Virus record (IMG/VR): IMGVR_UViG_2778261086_000004
DNA from: a virus
Taxonomy: Duplodnaviria; Heunggongvirae; Uroviricota; Caudoviricetes
Length of the DNA stretch: 10,801 bases
Direction: 5' to 3' (one strand)
A program made the position numbers and the translations under genes. Of this stretch, positions 1 to 10,801 are shown one piece after another. How positions within the stretch are numbered: the stretch's first letter is position 1; every line of letters starts with the position of its first letter. The notes beneath the pieces were generated by a model, which did no database searches, was not told the origin of the DNA, and was given only the letters and a program-made list of their open reading frames with translations.

Positions 1-675
1 ATGTTAATTTTCCAGATTGCCAATAAGCACCTCAGCAAAACTGTTTACTGCAAAGGTGGCAGTGATGGCGGTTCAAAAGCCCAGGCACGCGCAACTGAAA
101 AGGGCATCGAATTGCAACGTGAAATGTGGCAGACGAACATGCAGAACCTTGCACCGTTCACGCCACTCGCTCAGCAGTACGTATCAGAGTTGCAAAATCT
201 TTCCTCTCTTCAGGGGCAAGGTCAGGCTCTTAACCAGTATTACAACTCTCAGCAGTATAAAGACCTTGCAGGGCAGGCGCGCTATCAGAGTCTGGCAGCA
301 GCAGAGGCAACGGGTGGATTAGGCTCTACAGCAACAGGAAACCAGTTAGCAGCAATCGCACCTACACTCGGTCAAAACTGGCTGTCAGGTCAGATGAACA
401 ACTACAACAATCTGGCAAATATCGGCCTTGGTGCTCTTACAGGTCAGGCAAATGCCGGACAGAACTACGCTAACAACGTCAGCCAATTGTATCAACAGCA
501 GGCGGCAGCATCTGCGGCGAATGCTAACCGACCATCAGGACTGCAATCAGCCTTGGGAGGTGCCATGAGCGGTGCGGCATCAGGGGCGATGATTGGCTCT
601 GTGGTGCCAGGAATAGGTACGGCTGTTGGCGCTATTGGTGGCGGCATTATCGGTGGTCTTGGATCATTGTTTTAA
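1..675 (+). CDS. P22 gp7-like ejection (internal virion) protein; Gln/Ala/Gly/Asn-rich; N-terminus may lie at or just beyond the window edge
   Basis: 224-aa ORF ending TAA at 673-675, directly upstream of two ORFs whose sizes match P22 gp20 and gp16 (P22 gp7 is about 229 aa from memory). Low-complexity composition; assignment by synteny and size, not alignment. Confidence 0.6.
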   Translation: MLIFQIANKHLSKTVYCKGGSDGGSKAQARATEKGIELQREMWQTNMQNLAPFTPLAQQYVSELQNLSSLQGQGQALNQYYNSQQYKDLAGQARYQSLAAAEATGGLGSTATGNQLAAIAPTLGQNWLSGQMNNYNNLANIGLGALTGQANAGQNYANNVSQLYQQQAAASAANANRPSGLQSALGGAMSGAASGAMIGSVVPGIGTAVGAIGGGIIGGLGSLF

Positions 676-684
676 GGTGGGAAT

Positions 685-2097
685 ATGGCTACTTGGCAAC
701 AAGGAATCAACTCAGGCGGCTTTCTTGCTGGTATCGGTGGGCAAAACTCAAATGCGCCAAAGGCAAGTGATGTAAGTGAGGCGTTGGCCTATATTCGCCA
801 GAACAACGAAATGGAGCGCTCAGGTCGCAATAACATCGGCCTTCAGGCGTTGCAGGGGCTTGGTAGTGTCGCTCAAACATATCAAGCCGCAAAGCAACAG
901 GAAGCGGATGCTGCATTCCAAAAAGAATATGCGGCAGCCATCCAGTCAGGTGATCGGCAGCAGGTGCGAGATCTGATGACCAAATATCCTGGTCAATTAG
1001 AGAAGATTCAGTCTGGTATGAAGTGGGCAGACGAAGACCAGCGCAATTCTATCGGCACCTTAGCGGCTGGCGCACGCCTTGCTGCCTCGTCTCCAGAAGC
1101 AATGCAATCATGGCTGCAAAACAACGCCAAGGAACTGACTCGCGTCGGTGTTGACCCTAATAACGTTGCTCAGATGTATCAGCAGAATCCTTCAGGATTT
1201 GGTGAGTTTGTTGATCACCTTGGAATGGCTGCGCTTGGTCCGATTGATTACTTCAATGTTCAGGACAAGATGGTTGGTCGTGAGATTGACCGAGGCAGGC
1301 TGGCAGAGACAATCCGCAGCAATCAGGCTGGCGAGGCACTTCAGGCGAGAGGGCAAAACCTTTCCTATCAGTCAGCAATGACTGGGCACAATATCGCAGC
1401 ACAACGTTTGGCTCTGGATCAGCAAGAGTTCGGGTTTAAGATGCAGCAAGCGCAGGAAAAGGCTCAGCAGTTGATTAGCGAAGCACCTAAGCTGTCAGTA
1501 AACATGGAAAAAGGCATCGAGACGGCTGTAAACAATGCCACAGCATCATCAAACTCAGCCAATTCCATGAGTGCGCTTGCTCAACAGTTTAGAGCAGAAA
1601 AACCAACGACAGGTTTGTTCGGTAACGCACAGAACATGTTCGCAAAACTTACCGGAAGCGATACGACATTGCGTGATTTGCGCATTCGCCAAAATGCCCT
1701 TGTTAACAGTCAGGTTCTTAAATTCCTACCTCCCGGCCCAGCAACGGATAAAGACGTTGAGATCGTTCGACAGGGTGCGCCAACTGACATGGATAACCCT
1801 GAGACGGTCGCAAGATGGCTTGATGCAATGGCAAACCTTGAGCGACGAAACGCGCAGTTTAATGAGTTTAAAGCCGAGTGGATGAGCGCGAATGGCAACC
1901 CTGGACAATCGCGTAATGGCGGTCAGATATTGGGGTTGGATGTTAAAAAAGGTGAATCATTGGGGAGTGCCGTTAAGCGGTATATGTCAATGAATACTGA
2001 CGCAGCGCCAGCACAAGATTCGACACCTTCAGGAGAACCACGGAATCAGGTTGGATCATATACCTCAAAATCAGGCATTCAATTTACGGTGGAATGA
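685..2097 (+). CDS. P22 gp20-like ejection protein
   Basis: 470-aa ORF (P22 gp20 is about 471 aa); SD-like AAGGTGG at 674-680 before ATG 685; stop overlaps the next start (ATGA at 2094-2097), indicating translational coupling. Confidence 0.7.
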
Positions 2098-3923
2098 TGA
2101 AAGTAACTGCAAACGGTAAGACATTTACCTTCCCTGATGGTACGAGCACGGAAGATATTGGCACCGCCATTGATGAGTATTTTGCTGGTCAGGCTGTTCA
2201 GCAAAAAACAGTTAATCAGGACAATAATGCACCAACACGGGAAGAACCATCATTGATGCAACAAGCTGGCGATTGGCTCACTGGTGGTCAAAGTGCAGGG
2301 CAAATTGCAGAACAGGCTGGTCGTGGTCTGGTAAACATACCATTTGACGTATTGCAGGGTGGCGCAAGTCTGATTAATGCAATCAGTCAGGGGCTTGGTG
2401 GGCCAAAAGTATTGGATGATGTCTATCGTCCAGTCGATAGACCGACAGACCCTTATGCGCAAGCTGGAGAAACAATTGGCGGGTATTTAGTTCCAGGAGT
2501 TGGAACGGCAGGAAGCATGGCTATTGGATCACTGGCAGAGGCCGCAAATCAGAAAGGCGATTTCGCACAAAATGCAGCTAAAAATGCCGGAGTTAACCTT
2601 GCCGCTCAGGGGGTTCTTTCCGCAGCCGCAAAGGGAATAGGGCGTGGAATAACGGCTATAAAAGGTGATATTGCGCCAGAAGTGGCGAAGAAAATTGCCA
2701 CATCAGAATCGATGGGCGTGACACCAATGACATCTGATGTAATCCCGCCGAAAAATGCTTTCACTCGTGGCCTTACTCAGGATGCTGAGGGGGCTTTGCT
2801 CGGGACAGGATCAAAGAGAGCGGAGCAGTATGCAAAAAGAAGTCAGCTAGTTAAAAAACAGCTTGAGAAATATGGTGAATATAGCCCATCAGTTGTTGTT
2901 GACGATCTGTATGGTTCTCTGAAGTCAAGGAAGGATTCGGCCGGAAGCGTTATTGAAGACATTACAACCAAAATGGGAGACACACCTGTTGACACATCAA
3001 AATCTATTAAGGTTATCGACAACGTACTTACAAGAGCTAACAGGCTTGGGAAAGTGGCAAATAAGAATTTGATTCGCGGGTTATCCGATTTGCGAGAAGA
3101 ACTTGCTAAACCAGATATAGATTTTGGTCTATTGAGAGAGTTGCGGTCAGCCTTGAGGGAAAGTATTCAGGGAGATGCCATGGTTTTTCCTAATAGCGCG
3201 AAAGCCTCAACTGATGCCGTGGAGAGGGCAATGGGGGCAGATTTGAGGAATAACGCAGCGCGGTATTTGGGGGCTGGAGAGGCCGCCAGATACGTCAAAG
3301 CAAACTCTGACTACTCCAACGTCTTCAATAAAGTTCTCAATAAAAGGATTGCGAATAATCTCAACAAAGCTAAAAAAGAGTTTACTCCAGAGCTAATAAA
3401 CAGCGTTGTATTCAGCAGAAAACCATCAGATATTAAGAGGATATGGCCTACTCTTAGTGAAGATGGAAAGAACGCTATGCGTGCTGCTTATATCAGCAAG
3501 ATTGCAGAAAAAGCAGGAGACTCGCCAACAAAATTTCTTACCGAGTTAAATAAGTTGAAGTCGCAATCTGACGGTCAGATCTATAACACGATATTCAGTG
3601 GGAGACACATGAAAGAGCTTGATGCTCTTCATGAAGTTCTACAGCAAACAGCAAGGTCGGACACCGCAAATGTAGTAACTCAGACGGGGCAATCACAAGC
3701 CAACAGGATAAGGACGATTGGCGCAACTGCGACTCTTGGGGCAACACTGGCGCTTGAATCTGGTTTCGGTGCAATGATGCGCCTGTATGAGTCCAAAGCA
3801 ACGAGGAATGCGCTCTTACGTCTGGCAAACACTAAAGCTGGAACGCCAGCCTATGAAAGAGCGCTGAATAACGCTGCGAATGCCATCAGGCCGCTGCTTG
3901 CCACTGAGGCAACACAGCAGTAA
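2094..3923 (+). CDS. P22 gp16-like ejection protein
   Basis: 609-aa ORF, the same length as P22 gp16; start overlaps the stop of the preceding gene; last gene of the ejection-protein trio in P22-like gene order. Confidence 0.7.
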
Positions 3924-3940
3924 CTAAATGCCATGGATGG

Positions 3941-4228
3941 CTATTTTTTAGTGTAATAATCATCAAAATCGCAAGAAACAGATATCACAAAACCTGAAGT
4001 CATAGAAAAAGACAGGGTTTCACATGCCTTTCCGGCTTGATGGTATGCATTGATGCCACCGTATACGGATTCTCTTGATGAAAACAATGATTTTTCACCG
4101 TTTTTTTCTACAAGAATATGCCCATCTGAATCATTAATAAACCAAACAGAAATAGAGGAGCTTTCGCCAAGGAATGTTCTGTTGAATACCATGGGGGATT
4201 TACCCTTGACAACATTTTCTGCGCGCAT
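3941..4228 (-). CDS. Hypothetical protein, 95 aa, no recognised domain
   Basis: Minus-strand ORF whose ATG (4228-4226) lies 2 nt after the TGA of the upstream minus-strand small ORF (TGAttATG). AT-rich region; sequence looks protein-like but I recognise no homolog. Confidence 0.4.
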   Translation of the reverse strand: MRAENVVKGKSPMVFNRTFLGESSSISVWFINDSDGHILVEKNGEKSLFSSRESVYGGINAYHQAGKACETLSFSMTSGFVISVSCDFDDYYTKK

Positions 4229-4230
4229 AA

Positions 4231-4389
4231 TCAGCTCAGCATTTTTTTGCTATTTTTTTGTTCTGTATAGATTTTGTCTGCCACAAAATAAACAATGGCA
4301 ATGGCTAACAAAGATAGGGAAATCAGCAATGCCTTTTTAATCAATTTTTTGGCATCCCTGTAAATCTCAATTGATAATTTTTCACTCAC
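4231..4389 (-). CDS. Hypothetical small single-pass membrane protein (about 52 aa) from a GTG start
   Basis: Strong SD AGGAGG (rc of 4395-4400) 5 nt upstream of in-frame GTG (4389-4387). Predicted TM helix ALLISLSLLAIAIVYFV flanked by Lys-rich segments. The longer 124-aa reading (4231..4605) overlaps the plus-strand gene and its N-terminal part looks non-coding. Confidence 0.35.
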   Translation of the reverse strand: MSEKLSIEIYRDAKKLIKKALLISLSLLAIAIVYFVADKIYTEQKNSKKMLS

Positions 4390-4419
4390 ACCAACCTCCT
4401 TAGTTTTGAGCAGGATACC

Positions 4420-4785
4420 ATGAAAAAAGTTAACATTGGAAACGTACCAAAGATGCTCGTTCCGCTTTTTGAGAGCGGTACAATTGTGTTTTGTAGAGAC
4501 TTTCCAGAATGGCAACGCCTGCATCAAAAACTTGGCGTTGACGTGCAGGACTCGGACGCCAACGGAGCGTCTCATACAATGAGCAGCGAGAATGGTGTTT
4601 TGCATGTGATAGGTGTGTTCAATGGCAAACTATCTACTATTGCCCATGAGTGCGCTCACATGGCATTCGATATCTGCTCAAGGGTAGGTGTTGATGTTGA
4701 ACCAGGAAGAGCCAACGAGACTTACTGCTACTTAATGAGCAGGCTTGTTGAGTTCTGCGAGCGACATATCAAAAAGCCGGAGTGA
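4420..4785 (+). CDS. Hypothetical protein, 121 aa, with HExxH (HECAH) zinc-metallopeptidase-like motif
   Basis: ORF with AGGA at 4412-4415 before ATG 4420; stop TGA sits in the loop of a bidirectional terminator hairpin. Motif IAHECAHMAF in a hydrophobic context resembles a zincin active-site helix; no family assigned. Confidence 0.55.
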   Translation: MKKVNIGNVPKMLVPLFESGTIVFCRDFPEWQRLHQKLGVDVQDSDANGASHTMSSENGVLHVIGVFNGKLSTIAHECAHMAFDICSRVGVDVEPGRANETYCYLMSRLVEFCERHIKKPE

Positions 4786-5336: not shown

Positions 5337-7103
5337 ATGACAGATTCGATAAATGCCAATGTTGTAGTGAGTATGCCTTCGCAACTCTTCACTATGGCGC
5401 GTTCTTTTAAAGCCGTTGCCAATGGAAAAATTTATATCGGTAAAATTGATACTGACCCGGTAAATCCAGAAAACCAGATTCAGGTTTATATGGAGAACGA
5501 AGACGGCTCTCACGTTCCTGTTTCGCAACCAATCATCATTAACGCTGCTGGTTATCCGGTATATAACGGACAGATTGCAAAGTTCGTTACCGTACAGGGA
5601 CATTCAATGGCTGTGTATGACGCATATGGCACACAGCAGTTCTACTATCCAAACATTCTCAAGTATGACCCGGACCAGTTCCGGCATGAGCTAGAGGGAG
5701 AGTTTGCAAGCGGGGCATTCCCTGAAACAGTAAAGTATAAGTATGGATTACCATCTGTTGTTGATGGTGCTGTCTTCAGGAATGTACAAGAAAAGCTGGA
5801 TGATTTTGTATTTTTGGAAGACTTTGGTGGCAAAGACGATTCTGGAATAACAGATAATAGCATAGCCTTTCAGAAGGCATTCGCTTCAGGCGCAAGAAAA
5901 ATTCACTTGAAAGGTTCTGGCATATATGGAATGAAGACCAGAGACATTGAGCTTCCAGCAAAATATGAAATTATTGGTAATGCAAAAAATCCAGAGATTA
6001 AATATCTAGGTTCTGATTCAACCTTCACTATGTTTACCCTTACAGGGTCTGGCCCGGCTTCTAGTCAGTGGAAACAGGGTGGCATATTCCGAGATGTAGT
6101 CATATCATCCGACGTGCTGATTAACTGGATTGTTTGTCGTCATGTCCAGAACTTAGAGTTTGATCGGGTGTTTTTCTATAACGCACAAACTACTATGAAC
6201 AACTACCATTACTTTAACTTCTTCCGGTGCGAACGTTGGGGTAGTCCATTCTTGGGGCGTGCGGATTTAAATACTGTGGAGTTCATCAGCGAATCACCTA
6301 AGTTTCTTATGTGTTTCAGTTCTAACTCTCCGATTGACGTATGGGATACCGCCGATTTATATATCAGCCAATGTACGATGTTTGTTGGAGATTACGCGGT
6401 AAGGACACGCACAACACTTGGTGGGATGGGTGGAACAGACCAATTCGCGGGTTATCCGGTTATAATTTCAAATAGCGTTTTCGATGCCATCAACGGCCCT
6501 GCTTTCGATATGGAGAGTCTAGCTTACGCTACCATCAGCGGTAACATTATTAGTGCTGGGAGGCCGAACAATGCTCGTGGGATACATATTAAAGGTGCTA
6601 GAAACCTGGCATTTACGGGAAATACTATCACCTACTGTGGTGAGTTTGGTATGGTGTTGGAAAATGCTGAACAATGCTCTTTGTCGAATAATATATACAA
6701 CGGAAATAAGACTGGCGGGCTATCGTTGGTAAATTGCAAAGAGGTATCTGTCATTGGCGGTGCTATGGGTACATCTTATATCCGGGGTGGTTACTACGTG
6801 CAACCACTGGGGATTACAGACCCCGGCGATAACTGTAACGGCATAACCATCAATGGCGTTTCTTTCGATAGCGATATGACAACCAAGATTTACCTTAATA
6901 CATCGGAAGAGCGCAAAAACCGTATTATAGCTTGTCTAGGTGTTAATGATACTCCGACGACTTATCAGAACAGGGGGTCTACCGCGCAGCGCCCTACAGC
7001 ACCAGTCAGTGGGCAGATGTATTATGATACAACGCTAGGTCTTCCAATATGGTATAACACAGTATCATCTGAATGGAAGAGGGCGGATGGTACAAGTGTA
7101 TGA
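5337..7103 (+). CDS. Tailspike protein: P22 gp9-type N-terminal head-binding domain fused to a divergent beta-helix receptor-binding domain
   Basis: 588 aa; GGAG at 5325-5328. The first roughly 110 residues ([12 protein letters not shown]...[26 protein letters not shown]...[13 protein letters not shown]...LKYDPDQ) closely match the P22 tailspike N-terminus from memory. The remainder has beta-helix-like repeats (ISGNII, FTGNTI, LSNNIY) but is not P22-like. Confidence 0.9.
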
Positions 7104-7134: not shown

Positions 7135-8601
7135 TTAATTGCAGTTGAATGTAATGTTTTTATCGTAAACAAAAATCTTCTTATCTCCGACGTCAATAAC
7201 CTTTGATGGATTACCAATCTCTTTAATTGTTATATTTCTCATAACCTCATCATCTGTAATTATGAAATTTCCTCCGCGCTCATACCAATAGTTTTTTGAC
7301 AACCATTTATTGCATGCAAGTATATTCAAACCTCGGTTTACATCAATCGGAGCAATTGATATGTCTCCATCTATACTTGCTGATGAAGCAAACCAGAAAG
7401 ATGCATACCCGTTTGTGAGGTTATTCTGCCTTACAGTGTGTTTTATCTGATTTATAATATCATTAGAATTGTCTTTTTTTTCATGCATATAAATAGAACA
7501 AAAGAGAATAAATGTTGTAACAACCCCTAATGCGATGAATTTCCACCCTCTGGAGTTGTTAGATCTGCCAATAACAACAGGTGCTAGTATGAAAAATGGA
7601 ACGATATATCTTATAGTCCATTCATCTATTGGACGGTTACTTGCAAGGTATGCTGGTATCATTATAATACAAGCTATACATATAGCCATATTGACCATGG
7701 AGGTTTTGAATATTTCCTTTACTGACATTGCAACTAATATAAGAAGTAAAATCATTACAACAAAACAAAAAACAGAAATAAGCGCTGTAATATCAGAAGG
7801 TGGTTTGCCAAAGAAGAAAGCTCCACTGTATAGGAGGAATCCTTTTACGAATAAGTATAAATTATTCAGGATATCATCAAATGCAACAAATGTTGGATCT
7901 GGAACGCCTGGCAAAATGTACCAGTTATGAGCTCTTGCGTACATGGTCATAATTTTTGATGCAACATATGCAAATATAGTTGCAACTAGTATGATCAGAT
8001 TTTTTTGGCTTTTGGTTTTTACTATAAAAACCACTGATGATATTGCTACTGGTGCAATAATGAGTAGCTTTATGATGTCATCACTGAAACAAGCTAGAAC
8101 TAACACTAAAATATAAAGAGATAGAGAAATTAACGATCTTGTTTTGGAAAAATTGTCTAACATTATGAAGCAAAACAACATGGATACATATGTGCCGACA
8201 TGTATCACAGGTATTAATACGTTTAATACTGCAAACCCAGAAGGCAGCGCAACGCAAAATGAAATGGCCCATAACGATGAAAGCCTTTCTTTTGAAAGAT
8301 AAAATGTCATCAATGTAACCATTGAATACATAATTGCCGGTATGCAGTATGCTTGGTACTGTCCGTACCAGAATACCTTTGAAGCAAGCCCGTACCATAT
8401 TATGTCTGTAAAATAGAATGATACTGTAGAGAGATACCATCCACTAAGCGTCCAATTTCCGTCCGCAATGTCCTTACCCTCAAGAAGTCCAGAAACAGCA
8501 TCCGAACTTGGCAAAATCTGTTTTGAAATCGAGGCGTAGAAGAAAGTCAAGAATATAAATCCAATGATATATATGGCTGTTTTTTTTATATTTAAAGTCA
8601 T
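7135..8601 (-). CDS. gtrC: GtrC-family serotype-specific O-antigen glucosyltransferase (polytopic membrane protein)
   Basis: 488-aa, markedly AT-rich ORF directly downstream of gtrB (TAA, 1 nt, ATG), with many hydrophobic segments; position and architecture typical of the type-specific third gene of gtr operons. Specificity cannot be assigned. Confidence 0.8.
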   Translation of the reverse strand: MTLNIKKTAIYIIGFIFLTFFYASISKQILPSSDAVSGLLEGKDIADGNWTLSGWYLSTVSFYFTDIIWYGLASKVFWYGQYQAYCIPAIMYSMVTLMTFYLSKERLSSLWAISFCVALPSGFAVLNVLIPVIHVGTYVSMLFCFIMLDNFSKTRSLISLSLYILVLVLACFSDDIIKLLIIAPVAISSVVFIVKTKSQKNLIILVATIFAYVASKIMTMYARAHNWYILPGVPDPTFVAFDDILNNLYLFVKGFLLYSGAFFFGKPPSDITALISVFCFVVMILLLILVAMSVKEIFKTSMVNMAICIACIIMIPAYLASNRPIDEWTIRYIVPFFILAPVVIGRSNNSRGWKFIALGVVTTFILFCSIYMHEKKDNSNDIINQIKHTVRQNNLTNGYASFWFASSASIDGDISIAPIDVNRGLNILACNKWLSKNYWYERGGNFIITDDEVMRNITIKEIGNPSKVIDVGDKKIFVYDKNITFNCN

Positions 8602-8602
8602 T

Positions 8603-9517
8603 TTACTTATCCTTTAGAATGTATCTTGGTCGTTGCTTAACTTCAACATAAATTCTTCCTATATACTCTCCAAGAACTCCTATGCCTATTAACTGAACTC
8701 CACCAAGAAACAATATTGATACAATGATAGAAGGGTAACCTGGAACACTATTTCCAAACATCAATTTATCAGCAATCATCCATGCTCCATAAAGGAATGA
8801 TAAGGTTGCCACAAACAGGCCTATATAAGTCCACATGCGCAAAGGGAAAGTAGAAAAGCTAGTGATCCCTTCCAGCGCTAAGTTCCAGAGCTTCCATCCA
8901 TTGAACTTTGTGCTTCCTGCAACGCGTTCTGCTCGCGCATATTCTACGACATCGGTTCGACCACCAACCCAGCTCAGCACACCCTTCATAAACAGGTTTC
9001 GTTCTGGCATGAGCTTAATGTTTTCTACTACTTCGCGAGACATGAGCCGGAAGTCGCCAACATTTTCTTCTATCTTAGGGTTGCTGATTTTGTTATGAAG
9101 TTTATAGAACCACTCAGCAGATTTACGCTTCAGCCTGCTGTCAGTGGAGCGGTCAGAGCGTTTAGCCAGAACCATATCTGCACCGGCCTGCCATTTCTCT
9201 ATCAAGTGAGGAATAACTTCGATAGGGTCTTGCAGATCAACGTCAATCGGGATAATTGCCTCCCCGGTAGCATGGTCCAGACCTGCGAACAGGGCGGGTT
9301 CTTTGCCGAAGTTACGTGTGAACGACAGCGAAACCACAAGCGGGTCGGCAACAGCAAGCTCGTTGATAATTGATTCTGTAGCGTCTTTGCTGCCATCGTT
9401 TATGAAGACTATCTCGACTTCATGCTGCTGAAGCCCTTCAAATTCGCGCACGGTTTTATAAAAAATAGGTATCGTGGCCTCTTCGTTAAAGACCGGAACG
9501 ACTAAAGAAATTTTCAT
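8603..9517 (-). CDS. gtrB: Bactoprenol glucosyltransferase GtrB (GT2 family)
   Basis: 304-aa protein beginning [13 protein letters not shown]..., with the DxD region (IPIDVDLQD) and C-terminal TM helices; near-identical in pattern to Shigella/Salmonella phage GtrB as recalled. ATGA overlap with gtrA. Confidence 0.92.
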
Positions 9518-9876
9518 TTCGCATCCCTAAAGACAATGAACTTTGAATAGACGAAACCGCACACCAGGCTGATGGCGGAGAAGGTGACAAGAGTTATCAT
9601 CGGGGGAAGTGCGCATCTATCAGCAGCCCATCCAACAGTAGCACTGAGTGTTCCCATGAACCCGACATATAACATGTAGCGCATCGTTGTAGTTGATGCT
9701 TTGAATGTGAATTTTGCATTCGCGAAGAAGCTAAAACTCACAGCCACAACGAAACCTGCGAAGTTTGCCAGAGCCTGATTGGTATGTGCGGCATAGATAC
9801 ATACACCAAAAACCACCCAGTGTATAAGTGTGTTCAGCACACCAATCGAGGTGTACCTTGCAAATATATTTAACAT
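9514..9876 (-). CDS. gtrA: Bactoprenol-linked glucose translocase (flippase) GtrA
   Basis: 120-aa small membrane protein ([24 protein letters not shown]...[13 protein letters not shown]) closely matching GtrA of serotype-converting phages as recalled; first gene of the gtr operon. Confidence 0.92.
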
Positions 9877-10038
9877 TTATTTAATCAATGAGTTCTGAAA
9901 GGTATGAAGTCTATCATCCAAGTCTCAATCGATCGATACTTGCGGTAGTTGATGAGGAAAACTCTGGTACACAAAGCTTTGCACTGGACTGCAAGGTGTT
10001 GTGCTTCTCTGGAGTGCGATATGTTTGATGACAAAAAA

Positions 10039-10073
10039 TTAGCGCAAGAGGACAAAAAATCACCTTGCGCTAA
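10039..10073 (-). terminator. Lambda sib/tI-like hairpin (integrase retroregulation element), minus-strand orientation
   Basis: Inverted repeat ttagcgcaag (10039-10048) and cttgcgctaa (10064-10073) with a 15-nt loop, followed on the minus strand by TTTTTTGTCA; sequence and position just outside the attP P arm match the lambda sib region as recalled. Confidence 0.5.
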
Positions 10074-10083
10074 TGCTCTGTCT

Positions 10084-10242
10084 CAGGTCACTAATACCAT
10101 CTAAGTAGTTGATTCATAGTGACTGGATATGTTGTGTTTTGTAGTATCATGCAGTCTATTTTTTAGACTAAATGTATTTTAACGCATTGATATTGTTGGC
10201 TTTTGCTGTTTCGCGTTCAGCTTTTTTATACTAACTTGAGCG
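10084..10242 (+). other. attR (P arm, core, B') of a lambda-type site-specific recombination system at the E. coli attB-lambda site
   Basis: Arm-type sites CAGGTCACTAATAC (10084-10097) and CATAGTGACTGG (about 10115-10128); the first roughly 75 bp of the arm are near-identical to the lambda attP P arm and the rest is diverged. Core GCTTTTTTATACTAA at 10220-10234 is followed by the bacterial B' sequence CTTGAGCGAAACG. Confidence 0.85.
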
Positions 10243-10293
10243 AAACGGGAAGGTAAAAAGACAAAAAGTTGTTTTTAATACCTTTAAGTGATA

Positions 10294-10316
10294 CCAGATG
10301 GCATTGCGCCATCTGG
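10294..10316 (-). terminator. Possible transcription terminator or stabilising hairpin downstream of ybhB
   Basis: 9-bp perfect stem ccagatggc / gccatctgg with 5-nt loop just 3' of the ybhB stop on the minus strand; the downstream U-tract is weak, so confidence is low. Confidence 0.3.
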
Positions 10317-10324
10317 CAGAGTGA

Positions 10325-10801
10325 TTAACTAAACATCGCAGTAATCGAGGCGCTTGCCAGAGAGTGGAAATGAACGTTAAACCCGACCATCGCGCCGCTG
10401 GCACCTTCATCGACATCAATACGTTCTATATCCAGCGCGTGAACGGTAAAAATGTAGCGATGAGTTTCGCCTTTCGGCGGTGCTGCGCCATCGTACCCGG
10501 TTTTACCAAAGTCGGTACGCGTCTGCAAAACGCCGTCTGGCATTGCTACCAGACCAGAGCCAAACCCTTGCGGTAATACGCGGGTATCAGCGGGTAAGTT
10601 AACAACTACCCAGTGCCACCAGCCGGAGCCGGTTGGCGCATCCGGGTCGTAGCAGGTGACAACAAAACTTTTCGTTCCCGCAGGAACATCATCCCACGCC
10701 AGATGCGGTGAAATATTATCGCCATCGTAACCCATGCCGTTAAAGACATGACGATGCGGCAATTTATCGCCATCGCGCAGATCGTTACTGATGAGTTTCA
10801 T
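10325..10801 (-). CDS. ybhB: Host PEBP/RKIP-family protein YbhB (complete, 158 aa)
   Basis: ORF translation MKLISNDLRDGDKLPHRHVFNGMGYDGDNISPHLAWDDVPAGTKSFVVTCYDPDAP... matches E. coli YbhB as recalled; ybhB is the gene beside attB-lambda on the bio side, transcribed toward the att site, as seen here. Confidence 0.9.
   Translation of the reverse strand: MKLISNDLRDGDKLPHRHVFNGMGYDGDNISPHLAWDDVPAGTKSFVVTCYDPDAPTGSGWWHWVVVNLPADTRVLPQGFGSGLVAMPDGVLQTRTDFGKTGYDGAAPPKGETHRYIFTVHALDIERIDVDEGASGAMVGFNVHFHSLASASITAMFS

Follow-up and report, generated by a model that had tools for sequence, protein, structure and literature searches.

Integrase-module swapping among P22-like phages has long been known, and for the Sf phages and P22 integration is into tRNA genes and relies on other integrases. 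In the serotype-converting phages SfII, SfIV, SfV, SfI, Salmonella P22 and epsilon34, gtrABC is placed next to attP, as in the locus described here, and epsilon34 has a DLP12-type integrase and the argU site (PMC2629481). P22-type ejection proteins and a tailspike, followed by a lambda-type sib-attP-int-xis arrangement, are found in the phages Huey (PQ850609), vB_EcoP-720R6 (ON470605) and phiHS3. Huey, a Lederbergvirus obtained on K-12, is temperate and forms turbid plaques of the lysogen type (PMC11990801). Its tailspike, attP, int and xis are present in one genome, and its Int is 353/356 identical to that of lambda. The record of vB_EcoP-720R6 continues into ybhB-bioA, and phiHS3 integrates upstream of ybhC, its excision having been shown by PCR. 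[quoted passage not shown] The combination of a P22-like phage with a lambda integration cassette at attB-lambda is already known from many E. coli prophages and, since this mosaic is common and published, it does not constitute a discovery.

The DNA analysed in this study is a stretch of 10,801 nucleotides (the window), whose ends fall exactly on the start codons of gp7 and ybhB. It carries, with very high confidence, the attR of a single P22-like phage with a lambda recombination cassette, which has since been reduced to a 12.4-kb remnant. The genes of the window and the DNA that joins them to the attachment site are the following:

1–675, plus strand: P22 gp7-like DNA-ejection protein, 224 aa (PF25688 P22_gp7, E = 1e-89; phrog_598)
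685–2097, plus strand: P22 gp20-like ejection protein, 470 aa (PF16928 Inj_translocase, E = 3e-71; phrog_917)
2097–3923, plus strand: P22 gp16-like DNA transfer protein, 608 aa (phrog_770, E = 2e-260; PF26808 Phage_P22_gp16 recorded for the identical product)
5337–7103, plus strand: tailspike with P22 head-binding domain and right-handed beta-helix (PF09008 Head_binding, E = 1e-65; PF13229 Beta_helix; phrog_7173)
7135–8601, minus strand: GtrC-position membrane protein, 488 aa, putative serotype-specific glucosyltransferase, assigned from its position after gtrA/gtrB alone
8603–9517, minus strand: GtrB, family 2 glycosyltransferase of the bactoprenol glucosyltransferase type (PF00535, E = 2e-30)
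9514–9876, minus strand: GtrA, flippase-like (PF04138, E = 2e-13), homologous to Sf-phage gtrA
9877–9964, minus strand: gtrA upstream region, with the mosaic joint to lambda-type DNA at 9963/9965
9965–10029: 65 bp just past sib, related to the terminal part of the b region of lambda (58/65 identical to lambda, 62/65 to HK106)

The structural genes adjoining the attachment site had been described in the initial annotation as P22-like rather than lambda-like; Pfam and PHROGs matches of gp7, gp20, gp16 and the tailspike agreed with this, and neither J nor stf of lambda was found in the window. In lambda the integration module adjoins the b region, J and stf, whereas in the window gtrABC and P22-type virion genes are found instead. 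The cargo between tailspike and attP differs among the related phages, being UmuD-like in Huey, none or other in 720R6, O-antigen-ligase-like in phiHS3 and gtrABC in the window. The GtrC-position protein matched no Pfam family and only PHROGs of unknown function, over its C-terminal part; a close homologue is a hypothetical protein in RefSeq. On the minus strand at 3941–4605, an ORF of 149 aa in three other contigs is split into ORFs of 52 aa and 95 aa in the lineage of the window, probably by a single-base indel, as seen in the BLAST alignment; no Pfam or PHROG match was obtained for these minus-strand ORFs.

The DNA of gtrB was about 81% identical to gtrB of the Shigella phages SfII, SfIV and SfV, and a similar value of about 81% was obtained for gtrA and gtrB of the Sf phages, including the gtrA upstream region up to 9963. 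The matches to SfIV, SfII, SfV and SfI, extending over gtrB and over gtrA with its upstream region, stop at query position 4627, equivalent to window position 9963, and the match to lambda begins at 9965, two bases past their end. This joint at 9963/9965 bears out the modular mosaicism, P22-like virion genes with a lambda-type att module, that had been proposed from the sequence. The 65 bp at 9965–10029 are replaced by unrelated sequence in 434, 720R6 and Huey; in Huey and 720R6, the lambda homology starts at tI and not 65 bp earlier as in the window. The ancestor would have been a temperate phage of the Lederbergvirus type that carried the lambda cassette in the order xis, int, P' arm, core, P arm, tI/sib, joined at 9963/9965 to the gtrABC O-antigen modification cluster, followed by the P22-type tailspike and ejection genes. 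Phase variation by Dam/OxyR, known from gtr operons of Salmonella, was considered for the gtrA upstream region and rejected, as only one GATC is present in 9877–9964.

The features of the attachment site and of the adjacent host DNA are detailed below:

10026–10085, minus strand: tI terminator/sib hairpin, with arms at 10038–10048 and 10064–10074 and the U-run at 10033–10038 on the minus strand
10030–10083: tI/sib segment, 50/54 identical to lambda
10081–10100, plus strand: region of the Int arm-type site P1, which aligns with the misc_binding feature 'int 1' in the record of lambda, 27583–27602
10084–10140: P1-H1-P2-X1 block, with a single mismatch to lambda, G10126
10102–10114, minus strand: IHF site H1, exact WATCAANNNNTTR, identical to lambda
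10111–10130, plus strand: Int arm-type site P2 region, with TAGTGACTG at 10117–10125, equivalent to lambda 'int 2', 27615–27634
10127–10140, plus strand: Xis site X1, ATATGTTGTGTTTT, unchanged in all aligned alleles
10141–10212: core-proximal arm, about 71% identical to lambda
10148–10164, plus strand: X2/Fis-site equivalent, CATGCAGTCTATTTTTT, with 3 substitutions relative to lambda and 1 relative to 434
10180–10192, minus strand: IHF site H2, exact WATCAANNNNTTR, with N positions unlike those of lambda
10213–10234: last 22 bp including the core, 21/22 identical to lambda
10220–10234, plus strand: common core of 15 bp, GCTTTTTTATACTAA, with the same letters in lambda attP and K-12 attB; attR crossover
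10235–10242: start of the B' arm, CTTGAGCG, read from the sequence directly after the core
10235–10324, plus strand: B' arm and host intergenic DNA, 100% identical to K-12, with a hairpin at 10294–10316 downstream of ybhB
10325–10801, minus strand: ybhB, PEBP-family 'kinase inhibitor' (PF01161, E = 6e-42), its DNA equal to K-12 b0773

The region 10030–10242 was confirmed as the attR (P arm, core and bacterial B' arm) of a P22-like prophage inserted at attB-lambda, between ybhC and ybhB. Positions 10220–10801 were identical to the attB-ybhB region of E. coli K-12 MG1655 (582/582), and lambda 27470–27742 aligned with window positions 9965–10238 with 87.6% identity over 274 bp (E = 5e-89 to 9e-87), a stretch that takes in the tI/sib hairpin and the entire P arm. 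Compared with the lambda module (27470–29165), the core, P1, H1, X1 and the tI/sib arms are identical, and order, strand and chromosomal target are the same. The alignments to lambda attP/attB and to K-12 that had been proposed as a check matched at the core, on the B' side and over the P arm, and insertion at attB-lambda beside ybhB was further supported by the rebuilt empty site (255/255). The bacterial B' arm does follow the core directly, CTTGAGCG at 10235–10242 being 100% identical to K-12. The boundary had been fixed at 10234, a position which lies within the core, but any point within the 15-bp identity 10220–10234 fits equally; strand exchange, as established for lambda, is located in the 7-bp overlap TTTATAC, at 10225–10231.

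The other end of the prophage was found in contig DAJJRT010000001.1, which was detected by a protein look-up with the GtrC-position protein and is 10801/10801 identical to the window. In this contig a Lar-like gene, Xis and Int, followed by ybhC, are located about 580 bp upstream of gp7; its Int is 353/356 and its Xis 71/72 identical to those of lambda, and its int-side DNA is 98.3% identical to lambda 27724–29165. An attL of the structure B-core-P' is located between int and ybhC, its P' arm agreeing with that of lambda at 120/120 positions, and the outer flanks, when joined, reproduce K-12 attB (255/255). The matching attL and the int/xis genes expected at the other prophage end were in this way located in a 100% identical contig. 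The lack of a lambda-family integrase or of a matching attL, or a ybhB side unlike attB, had been named in the initial annotation as contrary evidence; on examination the integrase, the attL and an attB-identical ybhB side were all found.

The two cores of DAJJRT010000001.1 are 12,448 bp apart, too close together to accommodate genes for the head, packaging, lysis, replication and immunity. Coat, portal, terminase, lysis, replication, repressor, N and cII genes were not found in this contig, and P22-type coat, scaffold, portal, terminase, gp4, gp10 and gp26 were absent both from it and from the remnant contigs with an identical gp16. At the deletion junction, a truncated gene 14 (DUF2824) is joined to a truncated early-left gene of the DUF551 type. 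The contigs with an identical gp16 (7/7) showed the order int-xis-lar-[deletion]-gp7-gp20-gp16 as far as each contig reaches, one of them stopping before gtrC and another before the int side, and their prophage is a remnant of 12–13 kb. The one that stops before gtrC keeps slightly more, a part of the tail-needle gene and gene 14; its left breakpoint in DUF551 is the same as in DAJJRT010000001.1 and its right breakpoint is different, which suggests nested deletions. A look-up with the gp7 protein, which is widely shared, gave unrelated P22-like prophages only.

On the basis of these contigs on record (24/80 index blocks in the GtrC-position look-up, and the seven contigs with an identical gp16), the window very probably comes from a defective deletion remnant of 12.4 kb. 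About 28 kb would have been lost, from inside gene 14 to inside the DUF551 early-left gene, and the genes for the head, packaging, lysis, replication and immunity would have gone with this deletion, as would N, cII and presumably also pL. The remnant cannot form virions. It is probably fixed in place, without a known way to switch on int/xis, despite its intact attL, attR, int and xis. At least five deletion architectures were observed at attB-lambda among related prophages with an identical GtrC-position protein. Selection for gtrABC as the cause of repeated deletions was discarded as unsupported, because the contigs were found by GtrC or gp16 look-up and the retention of gtr is partly due to this ascertainment.

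The P arm is close to that of lambda, with its divergence concentrated in one part. In the initial annotation, the first 75 bp or so of the P arm and the core had been considered a close match to lambda attP, and near-identity over about 70 bp, together with the core, was indeed obtained. Divergence also exists as stated, but it had been assigned to the distal P arm and is in fact core-proximal, in the X2/Fis-H2 region (10141–10212). The P1 site CAGGTCACTAAT at 10084–10095 showed no difference from lambda, and within 10081–10100 only positions 10082–10083 differ (CT vs TA), upstream of the P1 site. In the P2 region, the only substitution is the flanking G10126, which is common to 434, HK106, 720R6 and Huey. 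The IHF consensus WATCAANNNNTTR gave 4 matches in the window for 0.78 expected, a number reached in 0/200 shuffles. The name X1 for 10127–10140 is taken from the lambda literature, and the X2/Fis site at 10148–10164 is a putative one, assigned by its position. By homology to lambda, an excisive complex would form on this attR from Int at P1, P2 and the core, IHF at the two H sites (H1 and H2), and Xis/Fis at X1 and X2/F, and this complex would recombine attR with attL.

Six natural alleles of the region were aligned, those of the window, lambda, 434 (in lambda h434 imm21), HK106, vB_EcoP-720R6 and Huey. The tI arms, P1, H1, P2, X1, an AGTCT-T-rich block, the H2 core ATTGATATT and the common core were near-constant blocks, with the exceptions of a C-to-T change in H1 (HK106, 720R6 and Huey) and an A-to-G change beside P1 (Huey), and the substitutions were concentrated between the conserved blocks. 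Over 10149–10212, the 434 allele (OM418627) was 89% and the HK106 allele (JQ086369) 86% identical to the window, compared with 72% for lambda, and the P-arm substitutions of the window were present in both. HK106 also has in common with the window the 65 bp beyond sib (62/65), and the left flank of 434 is unrelated to the window right up to the U-run of tI. Both 434 and HK106 are siphoviruses, unlike the P22-type context of the window. The diverged core-proximal stretch is, as judged from the aligned alleles, a standing natural allele of the 434/HK106 type that keeps the IHF and X1 sites. Phage 434 has the att specificity of lambda, so the 434/HK106 allele class, and with it that of the window, is presumably functional, though less certainly so in the X2/Fis region with its three substitutions relative to lambda.

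The A-run at 10033–10038 reads as a U-run on the minus strand; the start assigned in the initial annotation, 10039, cuts off one base of the hairpin arm together with this U-run. The hairpin lies just outside P1, and its strand is the int-sense strand in the circular permutation. In the record of phage O276, a 'transcription terminator tI' is annotated at the homologous position and on the equivalent strand. A minus-strand RNA of 151 nt gave a fold z-score of -3.7, and 0/200 shuffles folded as well. Strand, O276 annotation and fold statistics together substantiate the sib/tI-like hairpin which had been noticed outside the P arm, facing transcripts from the int side. For the window allele, the predicted folding was -19.4 kcal/mol for RNA ended at the U-run and -29.4 kcal/mol for RNA read through, and the predicted read-through values of the other alleles were -24 to -28 kcal/mol. 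The same hairpin was predicted in all six alleles, with a lower stem gained only in the read-through RNA, and its arms were invariant. Compared with lambda, the hairpin of the window has two loop changes and a longer predicted lower stem.

An Rfam scan of the whole window in E-value mode gave no match, a result that is uninformative, as Rfam has no curated sib/tI family. A simple terminator scan did not include tI, whose loop exceeds the limit of 3–8 nt of that scan; its two hits were weak and lay at unrelated sites. The sequence TTGACAAAAAAT, 4 nt past the U-run of tI, marks the exact start of homology in 434, 720R6 and Huey, whose left flanks are unrelated. This common edge indicates that the hairpin travels with the int cassette, and its position in three unrelated left contexts would be expected if the int module had its functional edge at the lower stem of sib. 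In phage DN1 (MF374379.1, 22494–22655), an 'antisense RNA' is annotated on the plus strand at the end of the b region left of sib, at about window positions 9867–10028.

In the classical model, transcripts from pI stop at tI, and an RNase III site that destabilises int mRNA is completed only in the antiterminated transcripts from pL. By analogy, int transcripts from pI would end at tI in the circular phage, N-antiterminated pL transcripts would pass tI and form the longer stem, and an RNase III cut there would destabilise int mRNA; integration would place sib at the far end of the prophage and uncouple it from int. PMC5300877 cites the retroregulation of int by sib. Lambda-style retroregulation, uncoupled in the prophage state, was a sound proposal with respect to the ancestral phage, but control of int cannot operate in the remnant. 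An antiterminated pL-type transcript, which the circuit requires, is not available, the N/early-left region being deleted in DAJJRT010000001.1 and in all contigs with an identical gp16. Because N, cII and the early-left region upstream of the truncated DUF551 gene, the expected place of pL, are deleted, the sib circuit cannot run, and because the locus is very probably a 12.4-kb deletion remnant, retroregulation is a property of the ancestral phage and not of the present locus.

Other explanations of the locus were weighed against this reading. Two adjacent elements, namely a lambda-like stump (b-region end, sib and attR) and an unrelated P22-like element, could account for the lambda homology starting abruptly at 9965 and for the 65 bp of b-region-like DNA that lie past sib. 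The same gtrA-sib-attP joint is, however, present in complete prophages with a matching attL/attR pair (LSC52 and E. coli 042), the circular genome of Huey places attP and int directly after the tailspike region, and no second att site or integrase was found between the two parts in DAJJRT010000001.1; such a composite origin can practically be dismissed. It is also very improbable that the window represents the attR of a complete, inducible P22-like prophage in which retroregulation of int still operates on induction. The same design is known whole, in LSC52 (41 kb), and as the free phages Huey and phiHS3, and the intact attL, attR, int and xis of DAJJRT010000001.1 would be compatible with it, but the sole full-length 100% match has its cores 12,448 bp apart and is without the genes listed above, and the other contigs with an identical gp16 are likewise remnants. 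Huey, 720R6 and phiHS3 are complete phages, whereas the window belongs to a remnant.

With the single reduced P22-like phage retained as the origin of the locus, the present role of the hairpin admits another explanation, unlikely but to be taken seriously, according to which it works in the lysogen as a plain terminator that shields gtrABC from bioA-ybhB transcription across attR, RNase III retroregulation being vestigial or secondary. Several observations are consistent with such a role. The elements ybhB, the hairpin with its U-run, gtrA, gtrB and gtrC follow each other in that order, all on the minus strand; the hairpin at 10294–10316 after ybhB has no U-run, which makes read-through from ybhB conceivable; and the gtrA-sib-attR joint is kept at 99.3% on another virion type, in E. 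coli 042. On the other hand, conservation of the hairpin is no lower in phages without gtr genes (lambda, 434, HK106, Huey and 720R6), which argues that its conservation needs no gtr-shielding role. Returning to the remnant as a whole, we regard as rather doubtful the further idea that it is a retained serotype-conversion island (gtrABC and tailspike) in which tI has been re-used as an insulator against bioA-ybhB read-through, and which might excise or mobilise with Int and Xis from a superinfecting phage of lambda att type.

The lambda-type sib and P arm were found in 1045/5426 complete E. coli genomes with a query cover of at least 80%, and the gtrA-sib-attR-ybhB junction in 91/5426. The prophage of E. 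coli 042 (NC_017626.1, 877189–918037) has this junction with 99.3% identity and lambda-type int/xis, but its HK97-like head and contractile-tail genes and a different GtrC show that it is not P22-like. This junction on a prophage of myovirus type indicates that the gtrAB-sib-attP-int cassette is common to podovirus-type and myovirus-type prophages, and the same prophage rules out that the 91 genomes are all P22-like.

These data set the right boundary of the prophage and describe the element as a defective remnant carrying O-antigen-modifying genes. It is one more example of the known exchange of integration cassettes among lambdoid phages, with little reach beyond annotation; the added value resides in the 12.4-kb remnant, in the 434/HK106-like arm with its sites kept, and in the gtrAB-sib-attP-int cassette crossing virion types.

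In the receptor-binding part of the tailspike, positions 5718–6400 showed 77% DNA identity to orf212 of Kuttervirus CBA120 and were 84% identical to the tailspikes of phages BUCT789 and Henuyfy11N. The likeness of the tailspike and the gtr cluster hint at an O-antigen group targeted and modified by the ancestral phage.

In the PPompW prophages of EHEC and in Stx2a records (LC567822.1, 37682–37959), sib, the P arm and a core-like GGCTTTTTATACTAA are present as an internal copy with 79% identity, between the host-specificity gene and the espO/nleG effector genes. This copy extends over about 90 bp of the B' flank, which is bacterial DNA, as far as the hairpin distal to ybhB, and looks like the fossil of an aberrant, lambda-bio-like excision from attB-lambda.
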